The notes beneath the pieces were generated by a model. It ran no database searches. It was not told the DNA's origin and saw nothing but the letters and a program-made list of their open reading frames with translations. From the IMG/VR virus record IMGVR_UViG_3300032295_002421, positions 14,630 through 78,629 of that record: 64,000 nucleotides of DNA. The stretch is one strand, 5' to 3'. Source of the stretch: a virus (Duplodnaviria; Caudoviricetes). Shown here piece by piece: positions 1 to 48,253 of this stretch. The position numbers were made by a program, and so were the translations under genes. Each line of letters begins with the position of its first letter. Position 1 is the stretch's first letter.

Positions 1-828
1 AAAAATTCTTTTTACATTATTACCATTCATAATAAACAAGATCTAATTCAAAAAGTTCTAGAAGGAGTAGTTAACTCCACAAAGGACTCAGAATACAAAG
101 TTAATATAATTTGTGTTTTAGATGGATGCACAGATAATTCTGAATCTATTATAGATGAATTTACTAAGACTATAGATCCTAGGTATGTAATCCATAAAAT
201 ATATCAAGATGATGTTCACGAATTATTGTCATTAAATGCCTCATTTAAGTACATAGAAACATTAGAACATTCGGAAGAAGATCTTATATTCTTACTCCAA
301 GATGATGTAATCTTACAAGAACCAGATCTAAATGAAATAATAGAATTACTATATAATCAAAATACAGAATTAGGATACGTTTCCTTTAGGTGTGGACTAC
401 TAACTAGTTTAGATCAACAAGGAGTTCTTTGTGAGCATTCATTTATAGAATCAACAGATGGACATTGGAAACAATTGAATCTAGATCATTTTATTGAAAT
501 GAATAATAAAGAGTTTGGCTTTATTGAGATTGTAATAAAAAGCCCAACATGCATAAAGAAAAAAGTTTTAGATAAGGTAGGATATTTTGATGAAAACCTA
601 GCTCCATTTGGCCATGACGATTTAGACTTATGTATAAGATTAAATAAACTAGGATATAAAAATGCCGTGTTTGGTGCAAGCTTCTCTAGTAAGTTAGATT
701 GGGGAGGTACTAGAGAGGAGAAAAACCAAGATAAAGAATATCATAAAAGTTATAATGAAATTATCTGGAGAAATAAAATATACTTAACAAATAAACACAG
801 AGATTATTATGAAGCTAAGCAAAAATAA
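1..828 (+). CDS. GT2-family glycosyltransferase (5' end at or just before window start)
   Basis: Frame is open from base 1 (KNSFYIITIHNKQDLI...VLDGCTDNS), in frame with ORF 226..828; QDDV DxD-like motif and GHDDLDLCIR acceptor motif. Confidence 0.8.
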   Translation, partial: KNSFYIITIHNKQDLIQKVLEGVVNSTKDSEYKVNIICVLDGCTDNSESIIDEFTKTIDPRYVIHKIYQDDVHELLSLNASFKYIETLEHSEEDLIFLLQDDVILQEPDLNEIIELLYNQNTELGYVSFRCGLLTSLDQQGVLCEHSFIESTDGHWKQLNLDHFIEMNNKEFGFIEIVIKSPTCIKKKVLDKVGYFDENLAPFGHDDLDLCIRLNKLGYKNAVFGASFSSKLDWGGTREEKNQDKEYHKSYNEIIWRNKIYLTNKHRDYYEAKQK

Positions 829-14538: not shown

Positions 14539-15132
14539 ATGAACAAGAAGGAAAGAGAGTTCGTCAAATACGTAAAGTCTGAATGTAAAAAGTATGGGGT
14601 CAAGTGTGACTTGAGGAAAACTAGATACGTTAGATTATCAGGAAATATAAAGTGCTCAGGATATTTTGATGAAGATACTCCGGCTCTTGTTTGTTCAATG
14701 AATAGAAAGGATTGGATAGAGATCCTTGCACATGAATTTTCTCACCTCACGCAATGGATAGAGCAGATAGATATTTGGAAGAAGTGTATGACAAGTATGC
14801 CTCTTGTAGATGCTTGGTTAGAAGGTGAAGAGGTTCCTAATATAAAGAAACATTTGGCAGTATCTAGAGAGTTAGAATTGGATAATGAAAAAAGGTCTGT
14901 AAGAATTATTAAAAAGTTTGGTCTAGATGTAGACATAGATAGCTATATAAAAAAGGCTAATGCATATATCTACTTCTATAATAGATTATTGGCTACAAGA
15001 AAGTGGGCCACTCCAAACAATAGCCCATACAGTAACCAAAAGATCATAGAGAAGATGCCAAGGTATTTTAAAGCTGATTATTCAATAACACCTAAAAGAA
15101 TAGAAAAAGTATTCATACAAGAAAACTTATAG
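14539..15132 (+). CDS. Putative zinc metallopeptidase (HExxH)
   Basis: ILAHEFSHLTQW followed by ELELDNE. Confidence 0.6.
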   Translation: MNKKEREFVKYVKSECKKYGVKCDLRKTRYVRLSGNIKCSGYFDEDTPALVCSMNRKDWIEILAHEFSHLTQWIEQIDIWKKCMTSMPLVDAWLEGEEVPNIKKHLAVSRELELDNEKRSVRIIKKFGLDVDIDSYIKKANAYIYFYNRLLATRKWATPNNSPYSNQKIIEKMPRYFKADYSITPKRIEKVFIQENL

Positions 15133-32726: not shown

Positions 32727-33947
32727 ATGAAAGATTTTAACATCGCAAAGTATTTAAAAGAAAACCATTTAGGTTCTCATGCTATTCTTGGTGCCTACGT
32801 AGATTTGCATAATTTAAAAGAAGAAGAGGAAACAAAGTTAGATACAGAAATTCCGTATGAAGGTCCAGAACATAAGCTGGATGGCTTTGGTGATGAATTT
32901 AAACAAGATAGTCCTGTAGAAGAAAAAGCAGGTAAAGATGATAGAGATAGTTTAATGGCAAAACTATTTGCTATTCAAAAAAGATTTGGATGGAAAAAAG
33001 TAAGTCGAGATCGAGAGCCATTTCAAAATATAAGAATAGCTGATGGTTTAAAATTAGTTCGTAATAACTATGTTGAAGATGGTAGTATTACTATTGATAT
33101 TGATAGTACAGTAAGTAAAGCTGCTTTTAGTGAGATCAGAAATTTACTACAAACAAAATTTCCTGATTGGAAAATAGATCCTAGCAGTGTTAGAAAAGAT
33201 GTTGATCCTGATACTGATTCTAAGAATGTATTATTCTTTAATATAGTAAAAAATAAATCTGTTAAAGAAAATAGTCCTGTAGAAGAACTTGAAAAGCCTG
33301 AGAAAATATATTCTAATGATTGGATGAATAACTCTATAGATGATAAAAGAGTTGGTAGTTGGACTTGTTACTATACGGATCAAATGGGCACTATTTATTG
33401 GGTACATGATGATATCCCAGGTGAGCATATTATGGTTTATGCAACACCACATTGGGATGGGGCAGAAGGAATAGCTATTGAAGTTCAAGTAGATTACGGT
33501 GAGCATACATTAGATCAAGAAGTTGTAGGTGATCCTTCATATCCTGATTTTGAAAGCTACGCCCAAGATATGATTCCTGTTCTTAATAAAGTAGAATCTA
33601 AATATAAATCTGGTAAATATCACGATTATATTGATTATGGCGATTCTATGGATACTGATGATTCTGTAAATCCATTTCCTTCAATAGTAGGAGATGATGA
33701 TGATGATTCTGTAGGTCCAATTGCTGTTAAAGAAAAGGAATATGCTGATGATGAATATGATGATGAAGATGATAGATTTGCTTCATTAGGTGGAGAGCAA
33801 ATTAAATACGCAATAAAAAATCTAATGAATAGTGGTTTTGATAGTAGAGATATTGCACAATTTGTAATAGATACTATTGATAGATTTGAATCTTTTAATG
33901 AAGAAGTAACTGTATCATCATCTGGTGTTCAAATGGAAAAAAAATAA
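32727..33947 (+). CDS. Acidic modular probable virion-internal protein
   Basis: MKDFNIAKYLKE start; internal LKE/VEE/VKE/FNE sites; late motif at 32700. Confidence 0.65.
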   Translation: MKDFNIAKYLKENHLGSHAILGAYVDLHNLKEEEETKLDTEIPYEGPEHKLDGFGDEFKQDSPVEEKAGKDDRDSLMAKLFAIQKRFGWKKVSRDREPFQNIRIADGLKLVRNNYVEDGSITIDIDSTVSKAAFSEIRNLLQTKFPDWKIDPSSVRKDVDPDTDSKNVLFFNIVKNKSVKENSPVEELEKPEKIYSNDWMNNSIDDKRVGSWTCYYTDQMGTIYWVHDDIPGEHIMVYATPHWDGAEGIAIEVQVDYGEHTLDQEVVGDPSYPDFESYAQDMIPVLNKVESKYKSGKYHDYIDYGDSMDTDDSVNPFPSIVGDDDDDSVGPIAVKEKEYADDEYDDEDDRFASLGGEQIKYAIKNLMNSGFDSRDIAQFVIDTIDRFESFNEEVTVSSSGVQMEKK

Positions 33948-33950
33948 ACT

Positions 33951-34190
33951 ATGGCATTTAACTTTAAGCAATTTACAGCAAATAATCCTCTTCTAAAAGA
34001 AATTGATGCAGAAGAATTTGATTATATGGATAATGATCAATTAGATGCAGCAGGTCTTACAGGAGATAAGATAGGCCCAGATGAAGCAGGAAGTTCTTTT
34101 CCTAGAGTTGAATTTGAAGAAGCCGTGATCAAAGCTTTAAAAGCAGGTATAGATAAAAATACTCTGCATAAGATAATTGATTGGAATTAA
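33951..34190 (+). CDS. Small probable virion-internal protein
   Basis: MAFNFKQF...LLKE start. Confidence 0.6.
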   Translation: MAFNFKQFTANNPLLKEIDAEEFDYMDNDQLDAAGLTGDKIGPDEAGSSFPRVEFEEAVIKALKAGIDKNTLHKIIDWN

Positions 34191-34211
34191 CCTTTGCAAG
34201 CCCATACATAT

Positions 34212-34240
34212 AGCCCTCGGCAAGTGCCAGGGCTTTTTTT
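34212..34240 (+). terminator. Rho-independent terminator at convergence of + and - operons
   Basis: AGCCCT-c-GGC-aagt-GCC-AGGGCT followed by T-run. Confidence 0.8.
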
Positions 34241-34694
34241 ATTCTACATCCTTTCTATAGAACCTACCTTGGATATTATCGTTATATGAATCTATATGAA
34301 GAACTTTGTAGTGCATTTGCCACCAAACTTCGTAATAAGTCAATTGTTTCTTAGAGTAACATAATTGTAAGATCTCTCTAGCAAACATGTCGTCTCCTAT
34401 TTCTTTTCTTTCTTGATTAAGAAGCTTATTACTTCCATGGTATGATAACCAATCGGACTCTTTAACTATCTTCCTCTTGCGTGGGACGCGCCCAGGTTTG
34501 TCCCATTCCGCGATCTCCTTTTTGGTTAATGCTTTATTGGTATTATTGAAAAGAACCTTTCTACCTATATAGAATTTGCCATTAACTAGATTGACAATCT
34601 TATATATAAAGCCAACAGTATTGGATGGAAAGTCTTCTATTGAATTAAACTCTCTAGTAACTCCTAGAGGATCAAAATATAACCATTTTCTCAT
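34239..34694 (-). CDS. GIY-YIG (Seg-like) domain protein
   Basis: GFIYKIVNLVNGKFYIGRK; YHGS; YNDNI. Confidence 0.75.
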   Translation of the reverse strand: MRKWLYFDPLGVTREFNSIEDFPSNTVGFIYKIVNLVNGKFYIGRKVLFNNTNKALTKKEIAEWDKPGRVPRKRKIVKESDWLSYHGSNKLLNQERKEIGDDMFAREILQLCYSKKQLTYYEVWWQMHYKVLHIDSYNDNIQGRFYRKDVE

Positions 34695-34704
34695 ACTTTA
34701 TTTT

Positions 34705-35094
34705 TTAGCTATCCCACCTTACAATAAAAGTCATATCTGTATTTGGTGGTATTGGATATGGTCTAGACAATTTTCCTACTACTAATAATTCATCTTGATC
34801 ATTATATAATCCTATTGTAGTTACATAAGGATGAAAATCTGAACCTGTTATTGCATCTATATATGAACCTGAAGTTCCTGCTTTTGTAGCACTAAGATTT
34901 TGTGTATAATTAAAATCATTTTCTTTTACTTTACACCTAACTTCATTCTGATATATAGTTATTTCTGATTGCAAAGACATTGTAAATGGGGAATACGAAA
35001 TGAGCTCAGTATCTGTAATAAGATAGTTATTTTCATCTTCTGTTATAAGAAATAATGAATCTTCTGCCGTTAAAAAAGTAACTACTGCTGACAT
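34705..35094 (-). CDS. Baseplate/tail structural protein, C-terminal half of a split gene
   Basis: YVTTIGLYNDQDELLVVGKLSRP aligns to the C-terminus of 38759..39790; own ATATTTAT at 35099-35106. Confidence 0.7.
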   Translation of the reverse strand: MSAVVTFLTAEDSLFLITEDENNYLITDTELISYSPFTMSLQSEITIYQNEVRCKVKENDFNYTQNLSATKAGTSGSYIDAITGSDFHPYVTTIGLYNDQDELLVVGKLSRPYPIPPNTDMTFIVRWDS

Positions 35095-35096
35095 AC

Positions 35097-35708
35097 CTAT
35101 AAATATTCAGATTTTATTTCTTCCCACAAAAATTTTGTTACCTCTTTATTATAGTTATCTTGATAAAAATATGGTCCATTTTTTGGAGTTAAATAAACCC
35201 TTTCTTTACTTTCCATAGTTATTGCTATATCACAAAACTGATTAGTTGATAAAGAATCTATTAAAAATTTCATCATTAATTTTGCTGATTTAATATTAGG
35301 TATTAAACAAGGAGTTAATGATAGCATATAGTAAACTCTGTAAAAATCATTATTAAAATCTTTTATCTCCATATTTGGTTTTATCCCTCCACAATTATAT
35401 AAACTACCTCCTAAAAAAATAAAATCACATTCATCTGGTATATTAATACTTTCTGGTAGCGGTCTTATTAATTCCATATCATCATCTATTGATATAAAAG
35501 GAAATTTATTTTTTTCTATTGCATCACATATTAATTTTATTTGTCCAAAAGAAATTCTATCTTGTCTTAGATCTAGTTTTATGTCATTAGATATTCTATA
35601 ATACTCTAAATTTAAATTATTAAATAAGGCTTCTATTTTATTTCTTCTATCCGTATATCCTTCATAATTTAAGTAATAAAATGGTATATCAATTAATTTT
35701 ACATCCAT
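35097..35708 (-). CDS. GT25-like glycosyltransferase
   Basis: PFYYLNY...DRR..IE..F; SIDDD DxD motif. Confidence 0.5.
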   Translation of the reverse strand: MDVKLIDIPFYYLNYEGYTDRRNKIEALFNNLNLEYYRISNDIKLDLRQDRISFGQIKLICDAIEKNKFPFISIDDDMELIRPLPESINIPDECDFIFLGGSLYNCGGIKPNMEIKDFNNDFYRVYYMLSLTPCLIPNIKSAKLMMKFLIDSLSTNQFCDIAITMESKERVYLTPKNGPYFYQDNYNKEVTKFLWEEIKSEYL

Positions 35709-36454
35709 AGTATAGTATTATTAGATATATTAAATATTTGGTTTTTATTTTCTAATAAAACTTTTTTATGATTTTCTATATCTAGTAAAGGATTTCTAGT
35801 TTCTCCTAACCCTCCCTTATCGCTTATATCAAACATAAAGTTTTCACATTTAACAGTATGAGGAGGATTAAAATGAAAATAAGCATTTATATAACTTTCA
35901 TCATTTACACCGGGTTCGTATGGTATTTTTTTATCTTCTATTTGCCAATCTCTTAACGTTTTACAAAAATTTATAACCACATCTTTTTTTCCGCCAAAAA
36001 AAGCTCCGTAATGGTATGTGTAAGGAAGTGGACTGTCTTCTGGTACATATGCCTTAGAGTCTTTAAATCTATCAAACCCCTTTCCTCCAGATAAAAAAGA
36101 TCTATTTCCATAATGCTCTCCGCCTACAAGATCTCCTAAAAACCAATTTTCCGTAAAATCTTTAGATACATTAGTATCTGCATCAAAATAATATAAATAA
36201 TCGCAATCTATTTCCTCTAATAAAATAATATTTTTAAATTTTGAATTTGTTCCATCAACCCAATTACTATGCATTTCTTGATAAAACTTTACATTTATTT
36301 CAGATGGTAGATATGGTTTAGGATCTGTATCAGAAAAAAAGTAAAATTCTATATTTAAATTACCTTTATAATGATGAATAAATTTTTTTATAAATCTAAT
36401 TCCAAGTAAAAAATAAGCATTAGTAGCTATTAAAACTATTCCTATTTTTTTCAT
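35699..36454 (-). CDS. GT6-family (ABO / alpha-1,3-Gal(NAc) transferase-like) glycosyltransferase
   Basis: IGIVLIAT..Y; YFFSD; YFDAD; YHYGAFFGG; NDESYINAYF. Confidence 0.8.
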   Translation of the reverse strand: MKKIGIVLIATNAYFLLGIRFIKKFIHHYKGNLNIEFYFFSDTDPKPYLPSEINVKFYQEMHSNWVDGTNSKFKNIILLEEIDCDYLYYFDADTNVSKDFTENWFLGDLVGGEHYGNRSFLSGGKGFDRFKDSKAYVPEDSPLPYTYHYGAFFGGKKDVVINFCKTLRDWQIEDKKIPYEPGVNDESYINAYFHFNPPHTVKCENFMFDISDKGGLGETRNPLLDIENHKKVLLENKNQIFNISNNTILWM

Positions 36455-37407
36455 ATTAAAGGAGATTTTTTTTCTACTTCTTGTATTTCTTGATAGTATT
36501 TATAACTTGCTGTTCCTTCTTTTATTCTAAGATTTAAATTATATGGTACAAAATCTCTATATTGAGCTTTGTAAAATTTACCTCCGCAGGAACAAGTAAC
36601 TCCAGCATTATGAAATATATTAGTTTCATTAAATCTTTCTTCTGTATCTGTACCCCAACAAAAATCTAATTCTTTTATTACTTTAGTTTCTTGACCATTT
36701 AACCAACCATTCCATAGTACTGCCCACATATCTGCACACCATATTTGGAGTTCATGATATGATTCGTTTTCTTGTTTTTTTAAATTATTTAATTGTGTAA
36801 TTTGAAAATATAATTCTTCACAATCTTTTTCTACTTTTTCCCAAAATGTATAATCAATATTTTTAAGAATATATTGAGCACCACCTGAATTAGAATTCAT
36901 TAATTTAGGAATAACTGGATCCATTCCGATTATTTCACACATTTTTAAATAAACATCTTCACCTTTACCTTTTATATAATTATAATTTATGTAACTATTA
37001 GTATCACTTAAATACCAAATATTATCATTTACAAATTTATTCCAATCAACTGGTTTTGTAAAAATAATATCGCAATCATGATAAAATATAGCTTCATTAA
37101 AAAGTTCTGGGTGTTCTTTAAAATGTTGTTTTAATATATTTGGTCTTATTGAAGAAATATATTTTATTGGATGTTTTCTAGTGTCTGGATAAAAGAAAAA
37201 TCTTACTGTATCGTAATAGGTTGTTAGTTTATCCCATATTTCAATTACTTCTGGATTACTAGTTTCATCATTAGGATTACAAGCAATAAGAATATCAATA
37301 TTATTTGGATTTATACCATTTTTAATAAAGTTATTTATCATAACTTCTACTTGCCAAGCATAATAAATAAGTCTTGGTTGAACACAAATGTAACGTAAAT
37401 TTTTCAT
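36451..37407 (-). CDS. HPAT/SERGT-like (GT95/GT96-like) protein O-glycosyltransferase
   Basis: YYAWQVEV...Y...IRP...HF...HDCDI...GGAQYI...WCADMWA pattern resembles peptide O-glycosyltransferase domains. Confidence 0.5.
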   Translation of the reverse strand: MKNLRYICVQPRLIYYAWQVEVMINNFIKNGINPNNIDILIACNPNDETSNPEVIEIWDKLTTYYDTVRFFFYPDTRKHPIKYISSIRPNILKQHFKEHPELFNEAIFYHDCDIIFTKPVDWNKFVNDNIWYLSDTNSYINYNYIKGKGEDVYLKMCEIIGMDPVIPKLMNSNSGGAQYILKNIDYTFWEKVEKDCEELYFQITQLNNLKKQENESYHELQIWCADMWAVLWNGWLNGQETKVIKELDFCWGTDTEERFNETNIFHNAGVTCSCGGKFYKAQYRDFVPYNLNLRIKEGTASYKYYQEIQEVEKKSPLI

Positions 37408-37436
37408 AACAATTTTATTTTTATTTTTTATTTATT

Positions 37437-38735
37437 TTAACATGGTACAGATGATACCGAAATTCCAGGACCAGGACCATAAGAGAAAGTATTATCTCTT
37501 ACACACGGCGTATTTACAGAACTAAATGTATTAACACTACCACCTGTTGAATTATTATTTTCACACAAATTACCAGTCCAAGACGTACCTGTACCTTGAG
37601 TTTCTATTGTATAAACTGAACATGTAGGTACTTCTGTAGTTGTTGTTGTTGTTGTGCTAGTAGTTGTCGTAGTAGTGGTTGTCGTAGTAGTAGTTGTTGT
37701 AGTAGTCGTAGTTTCAGATGCAGAAGCACTTACATAATAAGATTTACCTGAAGCTGCTGTAAATGTATAAGAATTTACTGTTGCAGGTATTGATCCAGGG
37801 GTTGATATATTATTATGTAAAACTGTAGAATCAGTTAGATTTTCTATATATAATCTATAAGAACCCAATGTACCACCTTGACTATTTTGTTGTGAATATA
37901 TAGAACTTCCTGCAGAAGCTATAAAACTATTATTTTCTGTGGAGAACGATGATACTACATTTGTACCATCATCATTTATTAATAAGTCAGAATCTACATA
38001 AGGACTAGCTAATTCTGTATTTGCCCAAAATATAGTAGCTGGTACTTCTGTTGTAGTAGTAGTCGTTGTACTAGTTGTTGTTGTAGTCGGCGCTGCTGTA
38101 GTTGTTGTAGTTGTGGTACTAGTTGTTGTTGTACTAGTTGTTGTTGTAGTCGGCGCCGCCGTAGTTGTTGTAGTCGTTGTACTAGTTGTAGTTGTGGTCG
38201 TAGTAGAATCTATTATAGCGTTTCTATAATCTAAATTAGTTATTACAACTATACCTTGATTATATAAAATATTTCCTACATGTATATTAAGATTATCTGT
38301 ATCTATAATATTTCCATTACCATCATCTATAATATTATAAGTTAATCCTGTTAAATTAAAACTCTTTCTACTTATATTTTCTCCAAATACAGTTCTTGGT
38401 ATAGATATAACAGTTATTTCATCGCTAGATGATATTGGAAAATATCTAAAATCATTATCAAAAGTACCTTCTGCTGCTGTTGATTGAAGATTATCATTCC
38501 ATGCACTAGCTGAATTATCTAAATTTCCTGTAATATAAGAATTATAATATAATTGTTGTGCTAGTTTGTATACAAGAAATTCAGTTTTGTTTACATTAAA
38601 AGATCCATTAATTCCTCTATTAACAGTTATTCCACTATTAATAACAGAAGAACTAAAGTAAGATGCAGAGTATTTTAACTTTATAGGATAAGTAGAAATA
38701 TCTGACCTATCAAGAGTATTTTTTGATGATCCCAT
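37437..38735 (-). CDS. Baseplate/tail protein N-terminal half fused to mucin-like Thr-rich repeats, a beta-rich module and a Cys-containing tip
   Basis: VISIPR..FGE and VGNILYNQGIVVIT align with 38759..39790; two poly-Thr tracts each ending EVP. Confidence 0.75.
   Translation of the reverse strand: MGSSKNTLDRSDISTYPIKLKYSASYFSSSVINSGITVNRGINGSFNVNKTEFLVYKLAQQLYYNSYITGNLDNSASAWNDNLQSTAAEGTFDNDFRYFPISSSDEITVISIPRTVFGENISRKSFNLTGLTYNIIDDGNGNIIDTDNLNIHVGNILYNQGIVVITNLDYRNAIIDSTTTTTTTSTTTTTTTAAPTTTTTSTTTTSTTTTTTTAAPTTTTTSTTTTTTTEVPATIFWANTELASPYVDSDLLINDDGTNVVSSFSTENNSFIASAGSSIYSQQNSQGGTLGSYRLYIENLTDSTVLHNNISTPGSIPATVNSYTFTAASGKSYYVSASASETTTTTTTTTTTTTTTTTTSTTTTTTTEVPTCSVYTIETQGTGTSWTGNLCENNNSTGGSVNTFSSVNTPCVRDNTFSYGPGPGISVSSVPC
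37635..37712 (-). repeat. Poly-Thr coding repeat (second tract)
   Basis: ACN codon run. Confidence 0.9.
38049..38204 (-). repeat. Thr/Ser/Ala-Ala-Pro mucin-like coding repeat (first tract)
   Basis: Two TTTTTAAPTTTTTS units within a poly-Thr run. Confidence 0.9.
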
Positions 38736-38758
38736 TTACAAACTGTTATAGTAGTTTC

Positions 38759-39790
38759 CTACCAATCTAATTTAACTCTAATAAGAGCTTCTTTAGTAAA
38801 ATCTTTAGTTAGTGGCTTAGACATTTTAGCCACAGCTAACAATTCATTATTATCATTATATAATCCTACTGATGTTGGAAATGTTTGAGGACTATTAATA
38901 AAATTAGAATATATTAAATCACCAGATCCTGTAAAAAATGATGGATTAGTAGTATAATTATAATCTGAATTTTTAACTCTAACAAATAGATAGTTTGAAG
39001 AAATTGTTTCCTGAGAATTTAATTGGAAAAAAGATCCACTATTAATTGTTCTAAAAATTAGATTATTATTAAAACTAGCTGCATTTGAAGTAACCGCTGT
39101 AGAAAAAGAAGTTCCAATACCACCGTCTCCTGATGCTAAAGAAAGCGCTCTTGGATTTAAAAGTATCAATCCGATATCAGGTAAAAATAATCCATAACTA
39201 CCAGAAACTGTATATCCCTTAGTAGCTCCTGTTAATGTAGGACTATTTCTTGCGGTACCATTAGATCCTGATACTATATTATAAACTCTTCCGCCGTCTA
39301 AATACGATATGATATTTATATCATTAGAATTGTCTGTTAATTTTATAGGTCCACTACCTGCGTTTGCAAGATATAAATTAAAAGTACCAGGAAATAAACT
39401 CTCTTTATATTTATTTCTATCAATTTGAATAGCAATTAAATCATCAGAGTCTACGTTTCCAGTTCCAAAATTAATTGAACTTTCAGCGTCTCCGTAAATT
39501 AAATTTCTAAATTGTCCAAAAGTAATTCTAGTAGGACTATTACCTGTAACTATTGGATTTAATGGAGCAGATCCTGATCCTGCATAATGTCCATAAGCAA
39601 CAGAAAATTGAATAGAAGCTGATGGGGAAACAATAGATCCATCATAAACATCTACATAATAACTTCCTGTAGAACTAGCTGATGCTGTAAAAAAATTAGT
39701 AAGAATAGTTACATTATTACTCCATGCCGGTGCTGTTACCGAGTCAGATGATATGACAAAATCTGATGCTTCTAATCTTGTAAATGACAT
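38759..39790 (-). CDS. Baseplate/tail structural protein
   Basis: SVGLYNDNNELLAVAK resembles the tail-collar (DUF3751-type) C-terminal motif; lies in structural operon. Confidence 0.6.
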   Translation of the reverse strand: MSFTRLEASDFVISSDSVTAPAWSNNVTILTNFFTASASSTGSYYVDVYDGSIVSPSASIQFSVAYGHYAGSGSAPLNPIVTGNSPTRITFGQFRNLIYGDAESSINFGTGNVDSDDLIAIQIDRNKYKESLFPGTFNLYLANAGSGPIKLTDNSNDINIISYLDGGRVYNIVSGSNGTARNSPTLTGATKGYTVSGSYGLFLPDIGLILLNPRALSLASGDGGIGTSFSTAVTSNAASFNNNLIFRTINSGSFFQLNSQETISSNYLFVRVKNSDYNYTTNPSFFTGSGDLIYSNFINSPQTFPTSVGLYNDNNELLAVAKMSKPLTKDFTKEALIRVKLDW

Positions 39791-39801
39791 ATTTTATTAT
39801 A

Positions 39802-40458
39802 TTATGAGTTTTTTGTAATTGTTACAGGTATACTAATTCTTGCTCCAGAATCACGACCAACTACAACTAAAGTAGTAAATAATGAAGTATTTGATCCAAA
39901 TAAAGTATTAACTGTAGTTGCAGTTAAGTTAATTGTAGTTCCTATAACAGTTTTACTTACATTAGTACCTATAGTAGTTGTAGAATTAAGAGATACTGCT
40001 TCTGGTGTATTTATACCTACTCCATTAAATGAACTCATTACTCTAACATCTCCAATTGTGGCTACATATCCTGATTGTTCAAAAGTTGAAGTAGCGCCGA
40101 GGTAGTTTAGAGTTTGAGGAGTAATTGCAAGAGATGCTCCTTGTTTTAATTTAATTGCATCATATCCTAAATCAAGTACAGGTACTTTAGCTGTTCCTCT
40201 AGGAAGAGTAATAAGTTTATACTTCATAATCTCAGTATCATTAGGATATGCTTGAATTATAGGCATAGCCTCAATAGCCTCACCATAGAATGCGGATCCT
40301 GATGGGTGGTTTGGATTATAAAGACTGTAATCTATTTCATCATCACCTAAAGAAAATTGGGTAATTAGAAAAGATCCATTATTTCTAGAAAGAAGTTCTC
40401 TTCCTTTTTTAGTAAGGATAGCATCTACTACCACCGATGTACTACTTAAATATGACAT
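39802..40458 (-). CDS. Baseplate/tail structural protein
   Basis: LTKKGRELL...ITQFSLGDDE resembles the DUF3751-type N-terminus; late motif at 40475. Confidence 0.6.
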   Translation of the reverse strand: MSYLSSTSVVVDAILTKKGRELLSRNNGSFLITQFSLGDDEIDYSLYNPNHPSGSAFYGEAIEAMPIIQAYPNDTEIMKYKLITLPRGTAKVPVLDLGYDAIKLKQGASLAITPQTLNYLGATSTFEQSGYVATIGDVRVMSSFNGVGINTPEAVSLNSTTTIGTNVSKTVIGTTINLTATTVNTLFGSNTSLFTTLVVVGRDSGARISIPVTITKNS

Positions 40459-45980: not shown

Positions 45981-47837
45981 TTACATTGTTACTACACGAC
46001 CTTGAATATCTGTATTAGGATATTTTACTTCAAATATAGAAGGATCTAAAGACGGATAAAGAACTCCGTTTAAAGTTCCTGCAGATATATCATATGAGTA
46101 TCTGGAATATCCGCTAGTTAAACCAGATTTATTAACTATATTAACTTTTTTAACTGTTTGAACTCCTTCAACAATTTCTAATATAGAATAAATGTCTCCT
46201 AATATTATAGGTTGATTTATTTGCCAATTGTTAATATTAAAAAAGTCTTGTAATACTGTTATACATCTAGCTAATACATCTTGACTAGTATAATTAGGTC
46301 TAATTATAATATCAAAATCACAACCAATATTAATTATATATGCAGGTTTTATATTAACTGCATCTGTCATCATTCTATAATCTGATAAATATGTTTGTAA
46401 ATTTTCAAGCATAGCAGGAGAAGGGTTTTCTAAGTTGTTATTAGAATTTAATCCTAAAACATAAAGACTAACTAAAACTTGATCTTTTTGACCTATATCT
46501 CCTCTCATGTAATTATTAAAAGTAGCATCGTCTTTAGTTACATATGCCTTAGAAATTTTACCATATCTAGGATCCATACTAAGAGTTCTTGCTAAATAAT
46601 CTTCTTGAGTTACAGCTCTATATTGTGTTGGAAATTCTGCTAATATATTTAATTTTAATTCATTAACAGTATCTCCATCGCCACCACCAGAAGCAGGATC
46701 TATATTATTAACTGCTAAGGTATTTTGATATGTAGTATTACCAGCGGAAGAAAAAGATGATATTTCAGTTAACTGATTAGATAGTACATTTGATCTTGCG
46801 CCTCCTCCAACTAAATATTGAAATGTTATAGTAGTATTTTTAGGAGCCAATCCATAAGTTTGTGTTGTAACAAAATTAGTAGGATCAAATGAGCTAGATA
46901 AAGTACTAAGTCCACCACCAGATAAACCAACACTTACATTATTAGGATTAGGTAAAACAGCAGTATCTGCTACTGAATTTATTCCTGGTCCAAATTCTAT
47001 TTCTAAAGTTCCTTCTGATGTAAATCTAGAAACAAATCTTCTAGAAACATACATTTTTTGAAGCATATAAGGAACTTGATTCTGGTATTGATATAATGAT
47101 GGATAATTTGCCGCTGTATTTTCTACTGGTTTTAATATATAATCTTGGGCTAAATAAGGTACTTCATACCATGTGTTTCCATCGCTATCTTTGGCATCTA
47201 AAATAGTTATTATTGAACTATCAGAAATTGATACAGTAGAAAATCTTTGAGGTGCTCCAAAAGCAAAATTTGCTGTTTTTAATTGGCCAGATAATGCTTG
47301 TCTAGTTTTTTTAAGAATATAAGAAGTAGGAATATTAGAACTATCTATTGTATATACATCTATAGTAGTTGGATCCATAGAAGATGACATAGAAAAATCT
47401 ATTTTATCAGGGATATAAAAAGAAACACTAGAATCTACATTAGATCTAATTTGCATTCCTTGTCTTACTGTAAATGCATAAGAAAAATCTGGAATGGTTT
47501 CTGTTCCTATATTAATTGATGGTATTTGTTGATATATTTCTACATTTGCTATTGCCGCAGAGCTTATTTTAGGTCTATACCCTAACATATAAGCTAAAGT
47601 ATATAAATTATTTTTTTGTTTTGCATATTGTAAAAAGCTCTCTTGTATTTGATTATCTAAATAAAAAGATAATACGTCTCCAACATAAGCCGCCATATCA
47701 ATAAACATAGATCCTGGACTGGCTTGTGTAAAATCGTTATATACTGTAGGGTAATACGCCCTAGCATACTCTATAAGATCTGTTTTAAATGTATTAAAAT
47801 CTTTATTTATATATGATATATCAGTTTGAGTAGCCAT
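45981..47837 (-). CDS. Baseplate wedge subunit (T4 gp6 / baseplate J-like)
   Basis: KDFNTFK.DL..Y; FIDMAAYVGDVLSFYLD.Q; A.MLGY.P; YLVGGG..SN; RAVT.EDY. Confidence 0.85.
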   Translation of the reverse strand: MATQTDISYINKDFNTFKTDLIEYARAYYPTVYNDFTQASPGSMFIDMAAYVGDVLSFYLDNQIQESFLQYAKQKNNLYTLAYMLGYRPKISSAAIANVEIYQQIPSINIGTETIPDFSYAFTVRQGMQIRSNVDSSVSFYIPDKIDFSMSSSMDPTTIDVYTIDSSNIPTSYILKKTRQALSGQLKTANFAFGAPQRFSTVSISDSSIITILDAKDSDGNTWYEVPYLAQDYILKPVENTAANYPSLYQYQNQVPYMLQKMYVSRRFVSRFTSEGTLEIEFGPGINSVADTAVLPNPNNVSVGLSGGGLSTLSSSFDPTNFVTTQTYGLAPKNTTITFQYLVGGGARSNVLSNQLTEISSFSSAGNTTYQNTLAVNNIDPASGGGDGDTVNELKLNILAEFPTQYRAVTQEDYLARTLSMDPRYGKISKAYVTKDDATFNNYMRGDIGQKDQVLVSLYVLGLNSNNNLENPSPAMLENLQTYLSDYRMMTDAVNIKPAYIINIGCDFDIIIRPNYTSQDVLARCITVLQDFFNINNWQINQPIILGDIYSILEIVEGVQTVKKVNIVNKSGLTSGYSRYSYDISAGTLNGVLYPSLDPSIFEVKYPNTDIQGRVVTM

Positions 47838-47839
47838 TT

Positions 47840-48253
47840 TTACATATTTTCAATAGTTAGAATAACAGAATCATTTTCATTTGATGTAAGCAGTCTATAA
47901 CTAAATTTTATATTTATAGTACTATAATTTGGATTAGGTATTATACTTAATTGAGTTATTTCAATTTGGGGAAACTTTAATTCCATTTGAGTTCTTATAG
48001 ACTGTTCAATCTCTTCAAGAGTAATTTGATCTATTTGTTCAAATAATCTAGCCCTAAGACCAGCACCAAAAGTAGGATTAAAAACCCTTTCCCCAGGATC
48101 TGTTAAAAGATAATTTATAATATTATATTTTAATTGATCTTTTGTGGTATATACAGATGAAAATACATTATCAGCAGCAAAAGGTATTTTTACACCAATT
48201 GCTGTTGATGGTTTTAAATCTAGTGGTGATATTTGTTTTACTCCGTAGGCCAT
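47840..48253 (-). CDS. Baseplate protein, T4 gp25-like
   Basis: NIINYLLTDPGERVFNPTFGAGL...LFEQ. Confidence 0.9.
   Translation of the reverse strand: MAYGVKQISPLDLKPSTAIGVKIPFAADNVFSSVYTTKDQLKYNIINYLLTDPGERVFNPTFGAGLRARLFEQIDQITLEEIEQSIRTQMELKFPQIEITQLSIIPNPNYSTINIKFSYRLLTSNENDSVILTIENM

Follow-up and report, generated by a model that had tools for sequence, protein, structure and literature searches.

The window analysed in this study is a stretch of 64,000 nucleotides of tailed-virus DNA (Duplodnaviria; Caudoviricetes; positions 14,630 to 78,629 of the IMG/VR record IMGVR_UViG_3300032295_002421). It contains a gene block in which one of two paralogous genes, here called par2, is encoded by two separate open reading frames (ORFs) with other genes between them. 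Coordinates are window positions, and all ORFs of the locus lie on the minus strand at the positions first stated for them in an initial annotation of this DNA. Reading from 44523 to 34239, the block encodes a 1345-amino-acid (aa) protein, a 218-aa protein, the 343-aa par1 (P0001), the 432-aa P0002, three cargo proteins, the 129-aa P0003, and a 151-aa endonuclease. The par1 gene (38759..39790) is the intact paralogue of the split gene and is intact in every related locus. P0002 (37437..38735) comprises the N-terminal half (N-half) of par2 and a Thr-rich extension, and P0003 (34705..35094) is the C-terminal half (C-half). Since a gp6-like wedge gene (45981-47837; phrog_219) and a gp25-like wedge gene (47840-48253; phrog_261/43) lie upstream, the block appears to be the distal end of a contractile-tail baseplate module.

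The core of the N-half is a conserved anchor domain (38235..38735; P0002 aa 1-167) that ends in ...QGIVVITN and shows 46-78% identity to the N-halves or unsplit genes of 40 loci. It is followed by the linker LDYRNAIID (38208..38234), where, according to the alignments, relatives stop, enter an extension, or, if unsplit, enter the C-terminal domain. In the window, translation continues from here into the C-terminal extension with its tandem repeats, which runs to the stop codon (37437..38207). On the other side of the cargo, a conserved right junction, AATATTTATAGGT+ATG (35092..35107), was identified by cross-locus comparison directly at the start of the C-half. The C-half opens with a 30-aa leader containing the motif FLTAEDSLFLITEDENNYLIT (35005..35094), which is absent in most relatives; these begin at the position of aa 31. 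The C-half core (34705..35004; P0003 aa 31-129 and the stop codon) is a free-standing conserved C-terminal domain with 47-83% identity in 49 loci.

The initial annotation had matched blocks of the intact paralogue to the two halves. Its ORFs were confirmed and the block matches were reproduced by profile comparison. In pairwise comparison, P0003 is 40% identical to the C-terminus of P0001 over 72 aa (E 5e-12); the match of P0002 to P0001 is weak (34% over 47 aa, E 0.009) and covers the first block only. The nearest cultured relative of this Flavobacterium-type phage is Flavobacterium phage vB_FspM_immuto (NC_055915), which has the same gene order: gp107 (the homologue of the 218-aa protein), gp106 (par1, 47% identical) and gp105 (P0004), a single 357-aa ORF that is the unsplit orthologue of par2. 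By BLASTP, gp105 aligns with both pieces, its residues 62-234 with P0002 aa 54-167 (E 6e-6 and 7e-4) and its residues 241-356 with P0003 aa 31-128 (40% identity, E 3e-25). Because these matches abut at residues 234 and 241 of gp105, P0002 and P0003 together correspond to one gene. When the par1 family (A4) was aligned to the unsplit par2 family (A1) with hhalign, the match extended over the full length (99.45% probability, E 4.7e-22, 253 columns) and paired IAIQIDRNKYKE with VISIPRTVFGE and YGLFLPDIGLILLN with VGNILYNQGIVVITN, the same blocks named in the initial annotation. Thus, par1 and par2 belong to one family, with homology in both the N-domain and the C-domain, and a single ancestral ORF, for which unsplit orthologues exist in relatives, is encoded here in two still-conserved pieces. 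No family in Pfam or PHROGs was found for par1, the N-half, or the C-half.

Aligning homologues recovered unsplit versions in immuto and in about 25 IMG/VR relatives. The IMG/VR scan, performed with P0003, returned 49 loci with a common order: the big protein, the 218-aa protein, par1, either par2 or the N-half and C-half, and a GIY-YIG gene. In about 25 of these loci (L014, L017-L029, L031-34, L044, L046-50) par2 is one ORF of 269-339 aa; in about 24 (the window, L002-L011, L030, L038-41, L043, L045) it is split. The ancestral ORF comprises two domains, an N-domain (~170 aa) and a C-domain (~95 aa), joined by a linker of ~10 residues, and it is always in this interdomain linker that the break falls. 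The N-halves stop or continue after ...QGxxxITN-xDYxxALI and the C-halves begin M(P)xYxxYxLxL..ETTIYQNEVRC; unsplit forms read through the linker, as with ITNPSYQGTFSGYTLRL in L014. The break had earlier been placed in a tolerant loop, but it lies instead in the linker between two structural units. When the unsplit L014 protein was compared with 1.84 billion representative proteins, 2163 matches were obtained. Among the best 150 of these, 59 contain both domains, 82 the N-domain only, and 9 the C-domain only. The two domains of the 59 are separated by a short, uniform gap of 12-20 residues, and the 82 N-only forms carry unrelated extensions of 9-1404 aa, all directly after ITNxDY. On these alignments, the split is real and recurrent in related phages.

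The initial annotation had also viewed the 3.2-kb insert as the cause of the split, and this did not hold. Within the window's clade, the break has one and the same position in all eight members whatever their cargo, which ranges from none (L005) to ~5.5 kb; a more distant split relative carries ~12 kb. The pattern that had been named as contrary to the insertion proposal, two separate genes in all relatives regardless of the insert, was found in part: the window's own clade is split throughout, but unsplit relatives exist. In L005, the 92-bp gap is made of the joined remnants of two cargo genes: the 318-aa gene, represented by its upstream region and first codons, and a radical-SAM gene seen in L007, represented by its last ~60 nucleotides (nt). 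The join lies at an ATGAAA microhomology (L005:7908-8001 versus L007:5995-7979). L005 therefore descends from a cargo-bearing ancestor by deletion, and it is still split. The gene stayed split after the cargo was lost; therefore, the window's insert is not the cause of the split. By this comparison, the split outlives cargo loss. The remnant in L005 is itself a 21-codon chimeric ORF that begins as the 318-aa gene and ends as the radical-SAM gene.

The start of the C-half is marked by its own sequence context. In L002-L011, an identical stretch of 16 nt, AATATTTATAAGTATG, is found before or across the C-half start, irrespective of which cargo gene comes last, and all eight members of the window's clade have this junction; the window's version is AATATTTATAGGTATG. 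The C-half was correctly credited with an upstream motif of its own, as its ATG stands behind a conserved 13-nt element, AATATTTATA(A/G)GTATG. The argument for this element is its conservation across relatives alone, as AATATTTATA is not enriched in the window (2 matches versus 3 expected). The junction 10-mer occurs only twice in the window, each time just upstream of a structural-gene ATG, which is not above chance. No repeats beyond chance-level AT-rich ones flank the window's gap, and the marks of a transposon or insertion sequence (terminal inverted repeats, target-site duplication, a transposase) were not found, with no transposase among the cargo. In DNA comparisons, split and unsplit pairs are only ~70-77% identical, a divergence at which insertion boundaries and target duplications are unreadable. 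A SegE-like GIY-YIG endonuclease gene (34239..34694; 151 aa; PF19835, 91.4 bits) follows the C-half, and such a gene is the immediate downstream neighbour of par2, split or unsplit, in about 45 loci. No sharp identity boundary of the kind expected from recent homing of this gene was seen; identity rises gradually from ~80-90% in the C-half to 90-98% in the endonuclease gene.

By its gene content, the gap between the halves is a cargo site with turnover, occupied mostly by glycosyltransferases, glycan-tailoring enzymes, and extra Thr/Ser-rich ORFs. Across the split loci it ranges from 92 bp to ~12 kb. The window's three cargo genes had all been called glycosyltransferases, and one assignment was confirmed: the 251-aa gene (35699..36454) belongs to the GT6 family (PF03414, 39.8 bits against a gathering cut-off of 25; phrog_3317, glycosyltransferase), and its protein scores 70 bits with NCBIfam Gltr_6, under that model's cut-off of 250. 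The 318-aa gene (GT318; 36451..37407) belongs to phrog_4417 (E 1e-61), whose function is not annotated, and has no match in Pfam, NCBIfam, or PDB. In its ESM-atlas neighbour clusters, 10-40% of the members carry PF23452 HPAT (hydroxyproline O-arabinosyltransferase), a lead according to which this gene may possibly encode a peptide O-glycosyltransferase. It is the commonest cargo in the clade, with orthologues in L002-L011. The 203-aa gene (35097..35708; phrog_24091, no function annotated) has an orthologue in L011 only; its assignment as a glycosyltransferase is putative, as Pfam, NCBIfam, and PDB gave no match.

Related split loci present a wide range of contents. The gap is empty in L005 and holds one gene in L002 and two genes in L003 and L007. 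An extended N-half of 854 aa is accompanied by four genes in L004, and one of 681 aa by three genes in L006 and L008; L011 has the window's layout with an additional 331-aa Thr/Ser-rich ORF. The N-halves of L030, L038, and L039 (651-832 aa) are followed by a Thr/Ser-rich ORF of 339-355 aa, L041 has a 464-aa ORF in the gap, and L043 and L045 have the extension and nothing else. On the L012 contig the N-half lies ~12 kb from the C-half, with at least seven enzyme genes between them. Pfam searches of the relatives' cargo identified GT2, an FkbM methyltransferase, a DXD sugar-binding transferase, radical SAM/SPASM, two PF11397 GlcNAc-transferases, HtrL/YibB, and a second methyltransferase. The two PF11397 genes (GT60-type) are adjacent and head the ~12-kb cargo (L012:64-2128; IMG/VR 3300032285_003896).

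The Thr tracts reported in the N-half extension are real tandem arrays (38049-38205 and 37635-37713). The extension is laid out as Thr tract 1 (~38040-38207), module 1 (~37716-38039), Thr tract 2 (~37632-37715), and a Cys-containing end module (37440-37631). It gives a weak match to Pfam Mucin, under the cut-off, and its module 1 is 69% identical to a module in L004. Extensions of relatives have the same beads-on-a-string layout, in which Thr-rich stalks alternate with small modules. The display-plus-decoration module was not supported in the form proposed: Thr-rich extensions and transferases are each frequent in the gap, but they are also found apart, with transferases and no extension in L002, L003, and L007, and an extension and no transferase in L030, L043, and L045. 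A Cys within the last 1-3 residues ends many N-half extensions and Thr/Ser-rich cargo ORFs, among them the window's ...VSSVPC (37440-37445), extensions or cargo ORFs of L030, L038, L039, L045, and L011, and P0017, P0018, P0024, P0049, and P0074. The C-domain has an invariant Cys (NEVRC), and a disulfide or other covalent link is possible.

Selection and structure prediction both bear on the function of the two halves. Within the split clade, the median ratio of nonsynonymous to synonymous substitution (dN/dS) is 0.074 for the C-half, 0.146 for par1, and 0.217 for the N-half. The C-half is an intact ORF with an ATG in about 24 split loci and has 15 invariant residues; judged by these sequences, the free C-half is under strong purifying selection. 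AlphaFold2 (AF2) modelled the unsplit L014 protein from 63 sequences with a predicted local distance difference test score (pLDDT) of 87.7 and a predicted template modelling score (pTM) of 0.77. In the model, a long N-terminal strand (13-27) is followed by a middle part rich in beta structure; after the linker (166-177), a second long strand (178-196) leads on to a C-terminal sheet. Two classes of range, 19..186 and 1..269, are seen among its structural alignments (~70 aligned residues), which suggests that the N-terminal strand packs with the C-domain as one unit. The AF2 model of the window's C-half alone reached a pLDDT of 66.8 and a pTM of 0.37; such a poor model is weak evidence for a domain that may need its partner. 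Reassembly of the halves in trans, as the initial annotation had supposed, is plausible; it would be consistent with the C-half dN/dS of 0.07 and with the AF2 scores of the whole protein and the C-half.

The second of these two paralogous baseplate-periphery genes is thus a gene in pieces around glycosylation and fibre cargo, probably with halves that are still partnered. The N-half would anchor in the baseplate and display the extension. The free C-half would bind it non-covalently and complete the original two-part fold, as NrdA-a and NrdA-b do in phage Aeh1, and the co-located transferases may O-glycosylate the Thr tracts or other virion proteins. Cargo that normally stands after this gene, as in immuto, could have entered ~300 bp further upstream and produced the break; the entry point would be the only position in the ORF that tolerates one.

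The strongest competitor, itself unlikely but deserving serious weight, accepts the split and holds that the halves no longer cooperate. The N-half with its extension would then be a new fibre or adhesin without need of the C-domain, and the C-half an autonomous small protein, acting in the virion or in assembly, with a different binding partner such as par1 or the 218-aa protein. The 82 N-only representatives among the best 150 of the 2163 matches, with their very diverse extensions, fit this well, as do the ~12 kb that separate the halves in one relative, the separate leader module and Pro/Thr linker on some C-halves (P0137), and the fact that the C-domain is the part best shared with par1. 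However, the unsplit model has a confident, fixed arrangement and the isolated C-half is poorly modelled; both halves are found in the same genome wherever the contig reaches far enough; and minimal split forms add almost no sequence at the break.

How often the gene changed state was assessed with two trees, both unrooted, so that gain and loss of the split are not formally separable. The tree of the flanking genes (218-aa protein and par1) gives 5 state changes, all forced by well-supported branches, and the gene's own tree also gives 5, of which at least 3 are forced. In the latter, L045 groups with the unsplit L044 (100/96) and L041 with the unsplit L032 and L034 (100/99). Monophyly of the split forms is rejected by an approximately unbiased test (delta lnL 323, p 1e-7). 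Taken from these trees, the split state changed several times independently, at least 3-5 times. Fission is favoured as the direction because par1 and the remotest relatives identified (immuto, Microcystis phage Mel-JY01, and Rhodothermus phage RM378) are single-chain, because the form with both domains dominates among distant representatives, and because the one observed deletion, in L005, left the gene unfused. Under the opposite account, the two domains began as separate genes on either side of a cargo site and were joined into single ORFs by repeated in-frame deletions. Change counts on unrooted trees allow this, and the unsplit L032 and L034 lie inside an otherwise split group. It is nonetheless improbable, given that par1 carries both domains in one chain at every locus and that the 59 two-domain forms among the best 150 matches share so uniform a gap, in addition to the single-chain distant relatives and the outcome in L005.

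Two further accounts have very little probability. One takes the C-half for a decaying leftover from the replacement of the original C-terminus by a foreign one, which would agree with the N-half's new extension and with the cargo between the pieces; this candidate is already contradicted by a C-half dN/dS below those of the N-half and par1, by the intact, conserved ORFs, and by the conserved upstream element. Rejoining of the pieces by RNA splicing (raised in the initial annotation), protein splicing, or translational bypass has precedents in the introns of T4-like phages and the bypass in T4 gene 60, and is hardly credible here: no Rfam family was found at E<=1 in 33500-40000, the gap holds three to nine co-oriented protein genes over up to 12 kb, the N-half carries 265 aa of its own sequence past the break, no intein (Hint) domain was found in P0002 or P0003 (Pfam, E<=0.1), and no repeats flank the gap.

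Several points weigh against the interpretation of par2 as a baseplate gene in still-partnered pieces. The placement in the baseplate comes solely from gene order. The loss of confidence in the C-half model may only reflect a shallower alignment (28 rows versus 63). The co-occurrence of extensions and transferases is loose, and so is the putative substrate link between them. The direction of change is unrooted, and the unsplit L032 and L034 could be re-fusions. Finally, the fold is without a solved relative: Foldseek against PDB found nothing at E<=0.001, a PDB sequence profile search was empty, and the best VIA-align hit, a phi812 baseplate chain, had a Z of 4.5 with 73 residues aligned. The family is "hypothetical" in every library searched, with only uncharacterised phage proteins in BFVD and only "hypothetical" entries in the ESM atlas.

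The new N-terminus ascribed to the window's C-half, the 30-aa leader, was confirmed. Similar leaders occur on two other free C-halves, P0039 and P0137, the latter followed by a Pro/Thr linker, and five short N-halves end in tails of a similar kind. For the window's leader, the AF2 prediction shows three short strands (pLDDT ~60). A LLxEDxxxxLxxE-type peptide recurs at termini made by the split (window 35005-35094; P0039, P0137, P0040, P0054, P0066, P0097, P0138). By analogy with the tails of Aeh1 NrdA, this peptide could be an assembly tag.

Among known systems, the nearest analogue is the genes-in-pieces class of T4-like phages, to which the T4 topoisomerase genes 39/60 with mobA also belong. 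In Aeromonas phage Aeh1, nrdA is split by mobE, and the pieces assemble by means of tails at the termini that the split created (Crona et al. 2011, PMC3045599). The par2 locus resembles Aeh1 nrdA in that one ancestral ORF has become two co-oriented genes with foreign DNA between them, both of which are kept, without RNA or protein splicing; short novel peptides stand at the break-made termini in the window and some relatives, and a GIY-YIG endonuclease gene is a fixed neighbour. This neighbour might promote co-conversion of the variable cassette. Unlike the case of nrdA, the target here is a structural gene instead of an enzyme gene, and the split recurs several times at the same linker. The gap holds 0.1-12 kb of glycosylation and fibre cargo instead of an endonuclease gene, which is located downstream of the C-half and also beside unsplit genes. 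The Aeh1 pieces are known to assemble, whereas partner assembly is here only inferred. In immuto, the orthologous pair gp105/gp106 stands in the same order behind the 218-aa gene; however, gp105 is a single ORF, and four variable fibre/spike genes lie after it, before the GIY-YIG gene, and not inside it.

Modular tail-fibre and receptor-binding genes combine a conserved N-terminal anchor with exchangeable distal parts. The par2 family is similar in its conserved ~170-aa N-domain and in the variable extensions (9-1404 aa) of 82 representative clusters among the best 150 of the 2163 matches. It differs in that the original C-domain, though displaced, survives as a conserved gene of its own on the downstream side of the cargo. 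Glycosyltransferase genes beside structural genes with C-terminal extensions are also described for mycobacteriophage virion glycosylation (Freeman et al. 2023, PMC10527164, as cited in PMC12619734). As far as that citing account goes, the arrangement is like that of par2, though in another phage group and with other enzymes (here GT6, GT2, GT60-type, and HPAT-like leads); the putative acceptor here, known from genes alone, would be Thr-rich stalks on a baseplate-region protein.

To our knowledge, working fragmented phage genes are known for few enzymes, with a homing endonuclease in the break. Here the broken gene appears to encode a virion structural protein, and glycosylation and fibre modules are carried in the break as in a cargo bay. 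The locus is polymorphic across dozens of related phages, being unsplit, split and empty, or split with one to more than nine genes. Such a natural series makes it possible to examine how well structural proteins withstand fission, how host-interaction modules are exchanged between phages, and whether aquatic phages sugar-coat their own appendages; the family spans more than 2000 representative clusters with no annotation and no solved fold. A bolder and rather doubtful extension is that the linker has been used time and again, and kept by selection, as a docking site for host-interaction cargo, in a protein built to break there and re-form from two polypeptides. A large family of aquatic myoviruses would thereby swap glycosylation and fibre modules within a late operon while keeping the baseplate component; the LLxEDxxxLxxE-type peptides would act as assembly tags, and the SegE-like endonuclease would drive co-conversion of the cassette between co-infecting phages. 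Beyond the endonuclease gene, a very acidic 406-aa protein without a PHROG match is encoded on the plus strand (32727-33947), and its gene converges on the end of the structural block.

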